DNA from: Octopus sinensis
Taxonomy: Eukaryota
DNA: 64,000 nt
NCBI RefSeq assembly: GCF_006345805.1
Contig: NC_043005.1
Span: 21,080,001 to 21,144,000 of the forward strand
Direction: 5' to 3'
The notes beneath the pieces were generated by a model, which saw nothing but the letters and a program-made list of their open reading frames with translations, did no database searches and had not been told where the DNA came from. Made by a program: the position numbers and the translations under genes. Shown piece after piece: positions 3,280 through 61,218 of this stretch. Every line of letters starts with the position of its first letter. The stretch's first letter is position 1.

Positions 3280-3510
3280 CTGACAAACCTTTGAAGCTAC
3301 GTAAAATTAGCCTACCACCAAAAACTGCTTTGATACAGCTTCAGGATAAAACTGTAGCAGAGTGTAATAAAGCATGTTATCAATATCAACAATGTAATTC
3401 TTATGAGTACCATGAAAAATCTAAATCATGTGTTCTGAGTAATGTGGATCAGTTGACTGGTGATCTTAAACCCAATGTAGGAAACTGGGATGTTTATATC
3501 ACTAGCCCAG
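3280..3510 (+). CDS. Exon PAN-A1 (231 nt), 4-Cys PAN/apple domain
   Basis: ttttcag|CT GAC AAA ... AGC CCA G|gtcagt; [76 protein letters not shown]. Confidence 0.9.
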
Positions 3511-60500: not shown

Positions 60501-61218
60501 AACTATTTTTCAATATAAGACAGCCTTCGCAGAATTAATGTGAATTCGTGTACATCATGAGACCTACACAGAAGCTTGCCAGAGTGGTTCAAATGTGGAT
60601 AATATATTTGTACATTTCTCTTCTGATGATATGCATATTAAGACTGAATGGCCATAACATCACTTGACACTTTGATTAACTATCAATTTAAGGAAGTATG
60701 TACCTTACAAAATTACACCATTAGAGAAGAGATGAATACATGAATTGTCTGCAGCTTAAGCATTGAGATGAGGTTGTAAATATGTCTGGATATGTTCTAC
60801 AACTGACACTAACTCTAATTAGAGTGTCAATTTGGGGATCAATTATTTCTTCATTACAAATTGTTTGTTTCTAAAATGATGCACCAGATGCTTTGCAATG
60901 TTTTATAAATGCATAGTGTAATGTGTGTGTGTTTGTGTGGGTGGCTGAGTTTAAAATATATTTCTTGTTTTTCTCTTTTTCTAGTCAATGGAAAAAATTT
61001 GTTGCTTAACCAAGTTACCATACCAGAGAAGTATGTCTTTAGACGGTTTGGAGGTATGACCACAAAGAGTTGTGATGGAGCTTGCCAGCAATATCAAGAA
61101 TGTAGATCTTATAAGTACAATGTAAAAGATAAACTGTGTGCTTTGAGTAGAGAATCACACATGACTAATAACATTATACCTAGCAATAGCAGCTGGGTTG
61201 TAAGAATGGTTTACGCAG
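3280..61218 (+). CDS. Partial multi-exon gene for an extracellular mosaic protein, (PAN/apple-A - Sushi/CCP - PAN/apple-B)x4 + PAN-A; 13 exons, 935 codons in the window, both ends outside the window
   Basis: 13 exons with polypyrimidine-AG acceptors and GT donors, all phase 1. Junction codons are GTT,GTT,ACC,GTT,GTT,TCC,ATT,GCT,CCC,GTT,GAT,GTC (no stops). PAN-type C-x3-C-x5-C..F/Y....C motifs, CCP-type 4-Cys + Trp motifs and many N-x-S/T sequons. Confidence 0.88.
4182..4285. repeat. 35-bp tandem repeat, 3 copies
   Basis: TCCATYCATCTGTTTTTGATATGTTCRTACACCAA repeated head-to-tail with no spacers. Confidence 0.9.
5950..6750 (-). mobile_element. Old RTE LINE 3' fragment with (GAT)n tail
   Basis: Diverged match to the 16049-17100 copy (catcat-ttaac..gctttccatgctagcatg; [10 protein letters not shown] antisense frame). 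Confidence 0.75.
6780..7140 (-). mobile_element. RLE-type (R4/Dong-like) LINE reverse transcriptase remnant
   Basis: ORF 6798-7013: [17 protein letters not shown]...[13 protein letters not shown], an RT N-terminal motif. Confidence 0.65.
7145..7855. mobile_element. Foldback / non-autonomous DNA element with about 225 bp TIRs and internal TTAGGG-like repeats
   Basis: 7145-7371 is the reverse complement of about 7630-7855 (mirror ORFs 7170+ and 7597-); degenerate TTAGGG run at about 7399-7447. Confidence 0.85.
9177..9347 (+). CDS. Exon Sushi-1 (171 nt), CCP/Sushi domain
   Basis: ctccag|TT TTC ... TGT AAA G|gtaatg; [57 protein letters not shown]; this frame is not in the ORF track. Confidence 0.9.
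10374..10607 (+). CDS. Exon PAN-B1 (234 nt)
   Basis: ttctag|TT ACT ... CGA ATA A|gtaatt; [78 protein letters not shown]. Confidence 0.9.
10873..11005. repeat. Compound trinucleotide microsatellite (AGT)n(AGC)n(TGC)n(TGT)n
   Basis: Read directly; explains the poly-S/poly-C ORF at 10771-11067. Confidence 0.95.
11060..14830 (+). mobile_element. Ancient Penelope-like element remnant, split by the Tigger/pogo insertion
   Basis: Degenerate [31 protein letters not shown] and CNC motifs of Penelope RT/linker; homologous to 29560-31830. Confidence 0.6.
11450..14006 (-). mobile_element. Full-length pogo/Tigger DNA transposon with a disrupted transposase
   Basis: TA|CAGTGATCCCT...AGGGATCACTG|TA. ORF 12401-13456 has FSASKGWF (CENP-B HTH), [20 protein letters not shown] and [14 protein letters not shown]. 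Stops in the N-terminus; frameshifted C-terminus (12195-12404, 12080-12277). Confidence 0.95.
15290..15360. repeat. (TATC)n microsatellite
   Basis: Read directly; another (TATC)n/(TA)n compound lies at about 20470-20576. Confidence 0.95.
15749..15837 (-). ncRNA. Type I hammerhead ribozyme motif (Penelope/retrozyme-like)
   Basis: Minus strand: UAAC CUGAUGA [GUGACUAUAUUUA...UAAAUAUAGCCAC] GAAA UACAUG UC GUUA; complete core, long stem II, 4-bp stem I. Confidence 0.8.
16049..17100 (-). mobile_element. Young 5'-truncated RTE (BovB-like) LINE
   Basis: ORF 16781-17110: [43 protein letters not shown]; 3' UTR with about 60-bp internal repeats and a (GAT)n tail. Confidence 0.9.
17960..18310 (-). mobile_element. 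LINE ORF2 tether fragment (CR1/Jockey-like)
   Basis: Minus strand [11 protein letters not shown]...[30 protein letters not shown]. Confidence 0.45.
20097..20330 (+). CDS. Exon PAN-A2 (234 nt)
   Basis: ttctag|CC AAT ... AAC CCA G|gttagc; [78 protein letters not shown]; this frame is not in the ORF track. Confidence 0.9.
20610..20693 (-). ncRNA. Type I minimal hammerhead ribozyme motif
   Basis: Minus strand: UGG CUGAUGA [GUGCUCAGCAUUUUA...UAAAAUGAUGUAGCAU] GAAA CGAUCG UA CCA; palindromic stem III ACGAUCGU. Confidence 0.8.
21820..22565 (-). mobile_element. Mariner transposase remnant
   Basis: GVLFHQDNA...[18 protein letters not shown] matches mariner HHDNA and YSPDLAPSDY motifs. Confidence 0.8.
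22680..23560 (-). mobile_element. Penelope-like GIY-YIG remnant
   Basis: NCGEPCCG...[13 protein letters not shown]...LIGGT in ORF 22789-23070. Confidence 0.7.
23640..25430. mobile_element. Rearranged RTE LINE remnants (+ strand, with a - strand piece at about 24910-25340)
   Basis: [10 protein letters not shown]...[19 protein letters not shown] in ORF 24073-24321. Confidence 0.75.
25540..25803 (+). mobile_element. RTE-family 3' end / tail
   Basis: gtggttggcattaggaagggcatcc...ttaaatgatgatgat matches the other copies. Confidence 0.75.
25934..26107 (+). CDS. Exon Sushi-2 (174 nt)
   Basis: ttctag|TT TAC ... TGT AAA G|gtaatg; [58 protein letters not shown]. Confidence 0.9.
28850..29086 (+). CDS. 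Exon PAN-B2 (237 nt)
   Basis: ttccag|TT GCT ... GTA AAA T|gtaatt; [79 protein letters not shown]. Confidence 0.88.
29560..31830 (+). mobile_element. Ancient Penelope-like remnant (paralog of 11060-14830), split by an RTE insertion
   Basis: LYRDNCLAI (YRDD-like) at about 29975; MNIARNILS...VKVSY in ORF 31393-31629. Confidence 0.6.
30210..31165 (+). mobile_element. 5'-truncated RTE LINE
   Basis: [12 protein letters not shown]...[13 protein letters not shown], then the 3' UTR and a (GAT)n tail. Confidence 0.9.
32105..32275. repeat. Short inverted repeat, probably Penelope pseudo-LTR debris
   Basis: aaagctg..aaaactgctactcagagtttca versus tgaaactctgagtagcagtttt..cagcttt. Confidence 0.6.
33668..33882 (+). 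mobile_element. tRNA-type SINE (Nin-like core)
   Basis: B-box-like GAGTTCAAATTCC followed by actttgcctttc...gataaagtaagtaccag; homolog at 41445-41625 and decayed copies upstream of each PAN-B exon. Confidence 0.65.
33989..34222 (+). CDS. Exon PAN-A3 (234 nt)
   Basis: tttcag|CC AAT ... TAC CGA A|gttagt; [78 protein letters not shown]. Confidence 0.88.
34360..36950 (-). mobile_element. Decayed RTE LINE (mostly - strand; + strand piece at 34360-34790)
   Basis: [15 protein letters not shown] and GWAKFRQLL motifs in several short ORFs. Confidence 0.8.
36960..38047 (+). mobile_element. Tc1-family transposon remnant
   Basis: ORF 37188-37829: [35 protein letters not shown]; frameshifts. Confidence 0.9.
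38270..39270 (+). mobile_element. Mariner transposon remnant
   Basis: [31 protein letters not shown] and HPPYSP motifs, with stops. Confidence 0.88.
39320..40920 (-). mobile_element. Penelope-like element with inverted pseudo-LTRs
   Basis: GIY-YIG-type [19 protein letters not shown] and SRNYPP thumb motifs; 39320-39605 is an inverted copy of 40683-40920. Confidence 0.85.
41445..41625 (+). mobile_element. tRNA-type SINE copy
   Basis: Homologous to 33668-33882. Confidence 0.65.
41779..41949 (+). CDS. Exon Sushi-3 (171 nt)
   Basis: ttccag|TT TTC ... TGT AAA G|gtaatg; [57 protein letters not shown]. Confidence 0.9.
45164..45403 (+). CDS. Exon PAN-B3 (240 nt)
   Basis: ttctag|CT TCC ... ATA ATA C|gtaatt; [80 protein letters not shown]. 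Confidence 0.88.
45563..46530 (-). mobile_element. Tc1/mariner-superfamily (DD37D-like) remnant
   Basis: Minus strand [12 protein letters not shown]...[21 protein letters not shown]. Confidence 0.7.
46668..46901 (+). CDS. Exon PAN-A4 (234 nt)
   Basis: tttcag|CC AGT ... AAC CCA G|gtcagt; [78 protein letters not shown]. Confidence 0.9.
47517..49135 (+). mobile_element. Non-autonomous Helitron-like sequence (possibly two pieces)
   Basis: (TGTC)n near the 5' end; GC-rich subterminal motif and CTAG|T end at 49135; the 3' part is repeated at 62620-62728. Confidence 0.55.
48010..48483 (-). mobile_element. RTE 3' UTR fragment with about 62-bp internal tandem repeats
   Basis: Near-identical to 16049-16450; embedded in (TA)-rich microsatellite. 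Confidence 0.9.
50718..51190 (-). mobile_element. Helitron-like element, inverted copy of 47517-47905
   Basis: 50795-51190 is the reverse complement of 47517-47905; hairpin TATGACCC-n9-GGGTCATA flanked by CTAG. Confidence 0.65.
51908..52078 (+). CDS. Exon Sushi-4 (171 nt)
   Basis: ttccag|TT TGC ... TGT TTT G|gtagtg; [57 protein letters not shown]. Confidence 0.88.
53641..53880 (+). CDS. Exon PAN-B4 (240 nt)
   Basis: cactag|AT ACT ... TTA AAA G|gtaatt; [80 protein letters not shown]. Confidence 0.9.
54096..54240. repeat. (AGT)n/(AGC)n microsatellite at the same intron position as 10873-11005
   Basis: Read directly; the upstream flank is homologous to the intron after PAN-B1. Confidence 0.9.
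54260..56100 (-). mobile_element. Decayed RTE LINE ORF
   Basis: [44 protein letters not shown]. Confidence 0.8.
57800..60345 (+). mobile_element. L1/Tx1-like LINE ORF2 remnant
   Basis: [40 protein letters not shown] (YADD-like), HGGLGM and CxxC..H...C motifs; many stops. Confidence 0.8.
60985..61218 (+). CDS. Exon PAN-A5 (234 nt)
   Basis: ttctag|TC AAT ... TAC GCA G|gtcagt; [78 protein letters not shown]. Confidence 0.9.

Follow-up and report, generated by a model that had tools for sequence, protein, structure and literature searches.

Which gene do widely spaced exons of single PAN and Sushi domains in an octopus genome belong to? Thirteen of them lie in a stretch of 64,000 nucleotides (nt) of Octopus sinensis DNA (assembly GCF_006345805.1, contig NC_043005.1), hereafter the window, whose positions 1..64000 correspond throughout to C9:21080001-21144000, C9 being the contig that carries the array described here. 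We are fairly confident that these exons belong to an unrecognised, octopus-specific gene of 337 exons and 1.63 Mb, which derives from a small gland-secreted PAN-Sushi-GON protein, encodes a secreted polypeptide of 2.6 MDa and/or a combinatorial library of ~100 cassettes, and has no described counterpart.

Exons of the window and the array around them

A sequence-only reading of the window had described thirteen one-domain exons on the + strand between positions 3280 and 61218, in the order A-S-B-A-S-B-A-S-B-A-S-B-A (A, PAN-A; B, PAN-B; S, Sushi). All of them are present as claimed:

3280..3510, + strand: PAN-A exon A1, 231 nt, phase 1-1, PAN_1 38.2 bits
9177..9347, + strand: Sushi exon S1, 171 nt, Sushi 22.5 bits
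10374..10607, + strand: PAN-B exon B1, 234 nt, PAN_1 39.2 bits
20097..20330, + strand: PAN-A exon A2, 234 nt, 5 cysteines, PAN_1 30.3 bits
25934..26107, + strand: Sushi exon S2, 174 nt, Sushi 20.3 bits (0.4 under the cut-off), 55-69% identical to S1, S3 and S4
28850..29086, + strand: PAN-B exon B2, 237 nt, PAN_1 50.3 bits
33989..34222, + strand: PAN-A exon A3, 234 nt, PAN_1 28.3 bits
41779..41949, + strand: Sushi exon S3, 171 nt, Sushi 24.1 bits
45164..45403, + strand: PAN-B exon B3, 240 nt, PAN_1 44.0 bits
46668..46901, + strand: PAN-A exon A4, 234 nt, PAN_1 28.4 bits
51908..52078, + strand: Sushi exon S4, 171 nt, 5 cysteines, Sushi 21.3 bits
53641..53880, + strand: PAN-B exon B4, 240 nt, PAN_1 34.6 bits
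60985..61218, + strand: PAN-A exon A5, 234 nt, PAN_1 34.5 bits

Each exon is bordered by AG and GT, measures 171-240 nt, is a multiple of 3 in length and has phase 1-1. Spliced together, they give the predicted stop-free frame of 2,805 nt, equivalent to 935 codons, 934 of them whole, with 0 stops, and the other two frames contain 70 and 96 stops. In the list of open reading frames (ORFs), entries were reported missing for S1-S4 and A2, precisely the five exons with a start-to-stop ORF shorter than 60 amino acids (aa). At the Pfam gathering cut-offs of 21.4 bits for PAN_1 (PF00024) and 20.7 bits for Sushi (PF00084), the expected domains were recovered in nine of nine PAN exons (28.3-50.3 bits) and in three of the four Sushi exons, but S2 fell below the cut-off. 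Likewise, the four core cysteines attributed to the PAN modules are the only cysteines in eight of the nine exons, A2 having five, and the apple C1-C6 pair is absent from the PAN exons, as had been noted. Peptide identity within each class is 24-40% for PAN-A, 50-62% for PAN-B and 53-69% for Sushi.

These thirteen exons are modules 118-130 of a same-strand array of 1.63 Mb, which continues for ~640 kb on the upstream side of the window and ~930 kb on its downstream side, and of which they make up ~4%. When the genome was searched with one exon per class, 102, 130 and 115 matches were obtained (115 for PAN-B). The + strand of C9 at 20.35-22.05 Mb accounts for every PAN-A and Sushi match and for 103 of those to PAN-B. 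The other 12 PAN-B matches are weak (32-41% identity), lie on contigs C3, C13, C14 and C17, and are probably other octopus PAN genes, such as those of PAN-WSC proteins. A six-frame scan of C9:20.14-22.20 Mb (2.06 Mb, with one 100-base N run, outside the array) using profiles built from the exons gave 336 module matches, none of them on the minus strand or beyond C9:20.34-22.07 Mb. Three of these belong to a separate small gene and 333 to the main array (103 A, 128 S, 102 B). Splice sites were fitted automatically for 328 of the 333, and 11 irregular modules were inspected singly: two were partial remnants, one was a divergent intact PAN-A, three reflected a wrong choice of acceptor and five were frame-broken. 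Without the two remnants the array holds 331 modules (101 PAN-B, 102 PAN-A and 128 Sushi), 326 of which are intact, with AG..GT ends, phase 1-1 and an open frame. Their order is strict, as 299 of 330 junctions fit B-A-S (101 B-A, 99 A-S and 99 S-B), the others being 29 S-S, one A-B and one A-A, and the introns range from 132 bp to 21.6 kb. An origin by chance or as a repeat artefact was rejected on the lack of minus-strand matches together with the near-absence of identical modules, given that only one pair of identical peptides was found among PAN-B modules and none among PAN-A or Sushi modules.

Two modules deserve separate mention. The Sushi exon at C9:20516789 has an acceptor AG followed directly by GTAAG, which resembles a recursive-splice site. 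At C9:21213442, two Sushi modules follow a PAN-A module whose N-terminal part is shortened and acidic, and this PAN-A module is 92% conserved over the aligned part in the Octopus bimaculoides model P0005.

Judged by eye, the 47 long non-module ORFs in the region are mostly transposon remnants or of low complexity. Within the window, also by eye, the intron between B1 and A2 holds a decayed Tigger/pogo-like transposase ORF of 365 codons (12404-13498, minus strand), and other introns hold a Tc1/mariner-like transposase remnant (37122-37826, + strand) and reverse-transcriptase remnants of long interspersed nuclear elements (58766-59254 and 59515-59805, + strand). Related tandem units of 61-63 bp lie within a dispersed repeat at 16213-16374 and 48175-48373.

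Ends of the array and its small neighbour

The sequence-only reading had proposed that the flanks be extended to find a signal peptide, a transmembrane or glycosylphosphatidylinositol anchor and a stop exon. Two leader exons and a GON domain with a stop codon were found, but no transmembrane segment was. The unit and its neighbour are laid out as follows:

C9:20437578-22070114, + strand: whole unit, containing the entire window 1..64000
C9:20437578-20437632, + strand: leader exon, ATG at 20437578, 55 nt, phase-1 GTAAGT donor
C9:20438539-20438568, + strand: leader mini-exon, 30 nt
C9:20439834-22050281, + strand: 331 modules, from the profile scan
~C9:22057217-22070114, + strand: four GON exons, mapped from the GON domain of O. 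bimaculoides model P0004
C9:20341797-20366745, + strand: small gene leader-PAN-B-PAN-A-Sushi-GON, 465 aa, one cassette

The leader of the array was detected by collinear DNA homology upstream of the first PAN-B exons of both genes, the leader regions being 71% identical over 392 nt. At the other end, the last cassette consists of B-A and is followed by the GON domain, which in P0004 scores 114.8 bits (PF08685). The stop codon lies at C9:22070112-22070114, with AATAAA 42 nt downstream. In the 2.06 Mb scanned, profiles of the leader exon, the mini-exon and the last GON exon each found exactly two strong copies, one per gene, and the first GON exon has two matches genome-wide among nine candidates scored (the array and a copy at 20.357 Mb). 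No further leader or GON copy was found inside the array by this profile search, which recognises the known leader and lets unrelated leaders escape. Because the leader, mini-exon and last GON exon occur once in each gene, only one start and one end of the array can be recognised.

The small gene lies on the same strand ~71 kb upstream of the start of the giant gene and shares with it the leader, the PAN-B/PAN-A/Sushi cassette, the exon phases and the C-terminal GON domain. It is the orthologue of GON-Abd-1 from Abdopus aculeatus (UniRef100_R4G2C1, 465 aa; further orthologues XP_014778328.1 and XP_029640861.2), with 82-96% identity over most exons, and its GON exons are ~48-64% identical per exon to those of the giant gene. 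The two types differ in scale, with one cassette against ~101 and 465 aa against ~23,500 aa. Based on this homology, the small gene is likely the parent of the array, which likely arose by duplication of the neighbouring one-cassette gene followed by ~100-fold amplification of the three-exon cassette. Further upstream, an exon at C9:20218480-20219397 resembles a two-pore potassium channel by eye and would be useful for synteny.

The manner of growth left a trace in the array itself. Offsets of 13, 26, 39 and 52 exons dominate between nearest paralogues (70, 29, 19 and 13 of 322 modules), and in neighbouring near-identical 13-exon units of 93.5 kb, 35-37 kb is shared at 82-85%, intron DNA included. 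Shared intron DNA in such higher-order repeats is what unequal crossover predicts, and the array appears to have grown by higher-order tandem duplication of whole segments. Apolipoprotein(a) (LPA) is a duplicate beside plasminogen in which one internal module was amplified by unequal crossover, resulting in a large secreted multivalent protein. The giant array may have evolved from its small neighbour much as apolipoprotein(a) did from plasminogen, although the amplified element was Kringle IV in LPA, with up to ~40 copies, and is here a PAN-PAN-Sushi cassette of ~100 copies with a GON domain and no protease domain.

One gene or several, chain or library

Considering its single entry and exit, we regard it as likely that the array is one gene. 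Several observations weigh against this, or against the full chain as its product. Public annotation (NCBI/UniRef) divides the array among many genes whose products have 380-4,470 aa, and among proteins from sequencing-run assemblies none spans array junctions, gene models apart. The hydrophobic stretch of the putative leader is short, and an internal leader of unrelated sequence would have escaped detection. Since each module exon leaves the frame unchanged, any of them could be skipped. Five exons, at C9:20547150, 20861419, 21237375, 21940098 and 22040303, are frame-broken in the O. sinensis assembly (length not a multiple of 3). The O. bimaculoides models P0007 and P0008 match modules of recently duplicated blocks but not in their order, which implies that parts of the array turn over between species. 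Finally, the ratio of nonsynonymous to synonymous substitution rates (dN/dS) between nearest paralogues of equal length, 0.42-0.83, is high for a structural protein, even with pairs picked by protein similarity, which lowers dN.

Following the public annotation, the array could be read as several adjacent genes of a few cassettes each, with their own unrecognised starts and ends, and introns of up to 21.6 kb could indeed hide small exons. We consider this improbable, since no second leader, mini-exon or terminal exon was found although whole segments have been duplicated together with their introns. Furthermore, the gene models start inside domains without a signal peptide, and their ends for the same modules vary between species. 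P0001 begins in sequence that matches an intron and, at its other end, runs past the B3 donor into a stop within the intron. This read-through (window 45164-45412) meets a stop after two codons, and an O. bimaculoides RefSeq model ends exactly so; the end may be an artefact or a real truncated isoform. The fragments are labelled 'uncharacterized', 'hypothetical' or, wrongly, 'SVEP1-like'. The gene had been called hidden, which is only partly true: exons orthologous to its own appear in automatic gene models of O. bimaculoides and O. vulgaris labelled 'uncharacterized'. RefSeq proteins of Octopus sinensis match array exons at 100%.

Comparison with O. bimaculoides supports an ordered structure. 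Models of this species map to consecutive modules in four stretches with 81.5-86.7% mean identity (P0001, 20 of 26; P0005, 11 of 11; P0004, 11 of 12; P0002, 12 of 17), in ranges that were chosen after the mapping was known. The stretches cover the 5', middle and 3' parts of the array, include window exons A1-B3 and end, in P0004, with the orthologous GON domain. The corresponding identity for the small gene is 89%. Cysteines are also retained: all 322 of 322 cleanly fitted modules keep at least four, and the Sushi cysteines and tryptophan are ≥90% conserved over 122 modules. Together with the dN/dS values, this pattern suggests that selection keeps the frame and the cysteines and lets the surfaces drift.

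These data bear on the possibility that the exons are decaying duplicates or weakly expressed, and that only a part of the array, for instance the 3' end with the GON domain, makes protein. The five frame-broken exons, the two remnants and the high dN/dS of the youngest PAN duplicates (0.70-0.83) would fit decay, yet 326 of 331 modules lack an in-frame stop, cysteines and splice sites were kept while the introns filled with transposon remnants, and orthology is ordered in all three parts of the array; we therefore hold decay to be very improbable. Three of the five broken exons have intact counterparts in O. vulgaris or O. bimaculoides models (P0003, P0154, P0004), which suggests, but does not prove, assembly errors in these three, since such models may have been corrected. 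Symmetric broken exons could also be skipped.

Skipping leads to the alternative that the leader and the GON domain are joined through variable subsets of cassettes, giving many shorter secreted proteins that would serve as a recognition or prey-binding repertoire. Since all module exons have phase 1-1, any subset keeps the frame; the PAN-A paralogues have diverged (median identity 45%, dN/dS ~0.64-0.79), the neighbouring gene shows that a one-cassette protein is viable, and skipping would tolerate broken exons. However, phase 1-1 symmetry is normal for extracellular modules, and the RefSeq gene model P0006, whatever its RNA support, uses 36 of 36 consecutive modules. In Dscam-type mutually exclusive arrays, clusters of like exons lie between constant exons, whereas here B, A and S alternate and like exons adjoin only in S-S runs of two or three. 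Such a library thus seems rather unlikely, though it is a serious competitor. That a single gene makes the full chain as its main product, a secreted multivalent binding scaffold of ~23,500 aa, is on the sequence evidence an evenly balanced proposition.

Searches for proteins that span array junctions returned only gene models, the family of the small paralogue and single-exon pieces. Inspection of 21 short PAN/GON-type assembly proteins identified single-exon ORFs with intron read-through, and four further rows were Sushi-only. Of 24 sequencing runs listed, none is recorded as RNA. One run guessed to be RNA contained 0.07 of the words, close to the exon-only expectation of 0.073, and gave no evidence of expression.

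Predicted product, relatives and meaning

The 331 modules have a nominal coding length of 69,792 nt (23,264 codons), to which the leader and the GON domain add ~250 codons. The predicted product comprises ~23,500 aa, or ~2.6 MDa before glycans, from 337 exons over 1.63 Mb. Net charge per module is +7.2 for PAN-B and +2.5 for Sushi, PAN-A being neutral and carrying 1.3 N-glycan sequons per module; by arithmetic, these values amount to ~+1,000 net charge and 265 sequons in total. The highest 19-residue hydropathy in any module exon is 1.38 and the C-terminus is polar. A membrane receptor was rejected, as there is no hydrophobic transmembrane segment. The long extracellular glycoprotein of PAN-B/PAN-A pairs with Sushi spacers that had been proposed from the window is supported in kind, but its scale was ~25-fold too small and both ends and the origin had been missed. 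The lectin or adhesive role suggested along with it is an inference.

An AlphaFold2 model of the small paralogue (P0167; mean predicted local distance difference test score, pLDDT, 85.6) shows separate PAN, PAN, Sushi and GON domains. Its PAN-A domain superimposes on the N-domain of plasminogen (Z 12.3, root-mean-square deviation 2.0, 76 aligned residues) and on that of hepatocyte growth factor (HGF; Z 10.6, deviation 2.5, 76 aligned), so the fold is common to them at 12-19% identity, and its Sushi domain matches CD55 (Z 6.8). By sequence, solved structures gave only weak matches, to CD55, MIC4 and MASP-2. As PAN-B rows were in the wrong slot of the alignment labelled A2, with a depth of 3-6 at PAN-B, we claim no B-A interface. 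The GON domain model (P0004 residues 846-1067, pLDDT 90) had no Foldseek match among solved structures at E<=0.001, and its best VIA-align Z was 3.5. A role of the GON domain as a trimeriser like the fibrinogen or collagen C-propeptide was not supported (fibrinogen Z 2.7, over the N-terminal 45 residues).

PAN modules are known to bind proteins and glycans, and basic residues of the HGF N-domain mediate its binding of heparin. If the array is a single gene producing the full chain, one transcript would be spliced mostly in order, and the leader would take the product into the secretory pathway. The product would be a long beaded chain in which PAN-B/PAN-A pairs are spaced by one to three Sushi domains. 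By analogy with the HGF N-domain, the basic PAN-B modules may bind polyanions such as sulphated glycans, acidic mucus or matrix, and, with ~100 differing cassettes, avidity could allow the chain to cross-link or coat a matrix or the secretion of a gland. Because the GON domain of ADAMTS9/GON-1 is needed for transport from the endoplasmic reticulum to the Golgi (PMC3338439), the GON domain here may serve export or assembly.

GON-Abd-1, with its homologous leader, cassette, phases and GON domain, and cuttlefish GON-Sep-2 (R4FJA6), which is leader-Sushi-GON, reportedly come from the posterior salivary (venom) gland transcriptomes of Ruder et al. 2013. The salivary-gland setting is only a lead, taken from the small paralogue alone.

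Among 1.84 billion representatives, P0004 had 685 matches, 150 of which were listed, and 20 of ~151 match proteins were looked up by name. Among the matches listed, the multi-cassette proteins identified are all from Octopus; outside Octopus there are abalone PAN-GON and Sushi-rich GON proteins, Argonauta PAN proteins without the cassette and annelid multi-PAN proteins. A cuttlefish model (CAE1175485.1) has the order PAN-A, Sushi, Sushi, GON. Unnamed single-exon ORFs with 50-76% identity and the same exon borders as the array suggest that more distant octopods may also have it. The best named Protein Atlas cluster, a mollusc PAN/Sushi family of ~184 aa (score 0.88), is a lead only.

Two names given by annotation were rejected. 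In the case of SVEP1 (P0010, P0154), P0010 has only PAN and Sushi domains plus a spurious MBD match, the vWA, EGF and pentraxin domains of SVEP1 were not found in it, and P0154 aligns with array modules over nearly its whole length. In the case of ADAMTS, Pfam scans of P0001-P0010 and the domains of P0165 showed no metalloprotease or thrombospondin domain; ADAMTS9, ADAMTS20 and GON-1 share the C-terminal GON domain with the array, but their metalloprotease and TSP1 domains were not found in the scanned array models. Tandem apple/PAN proteins (factor XI, prekallikrein, TgMIC4, SML-2) have one to six modules, and their third apple disulphide is absent here. Among very large proteins, Drosophila Dumpy has ~23,000 aa, titin ~34,000 aa (~363 exons) and MUC16 14,000-22,000 aa. 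These are likewise very long chains of repeated small domains, with heavy alternative splicing in Dumpy and titin, but no domain common with the array was found, and the array has no ZP or transmembrane anchor.

That the architecture is not that of a characterised protein, as the sequence-only reading had supposed, agrees with the literature and with protein and structure searches, in which none was found. Full-text searches for octopus or cephalopod PAN, Sushi, apple, GON and giant genes returned, in the text accessible to us, no paper describing the locus; genome and venom supplements may list fragments. PMC12607849 yielded no passage on GON, and PMC9501996 cites Ruder et al. 2013 and has a passage on venom diversity. 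The array is a repeat-amplified giant variant of coleoid PAN-Sushi-GON proteins, undescribed as a unit within the searches made.

If it is one gene, its product would be among the largest secreted proteins and the gene among the most exon-rich described, rivalling titin in exons and Dumpy in size, and its annotation as at least a dozen unnamed fragments has concealed it. With the 465-aa parent adjacent, the locus would offer a clear and still active case of a giant protein growing by cassette amplification, in which higher-order repeats record the steps of growth. The locus is also a tractable entry to the role of the GON domain outside ADAMTS proteases; no solved structure clearly resembles the GON model. 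Taken all together, it would place internal domain expansion beside the known gene-family expansions as a source of octopus novelty.

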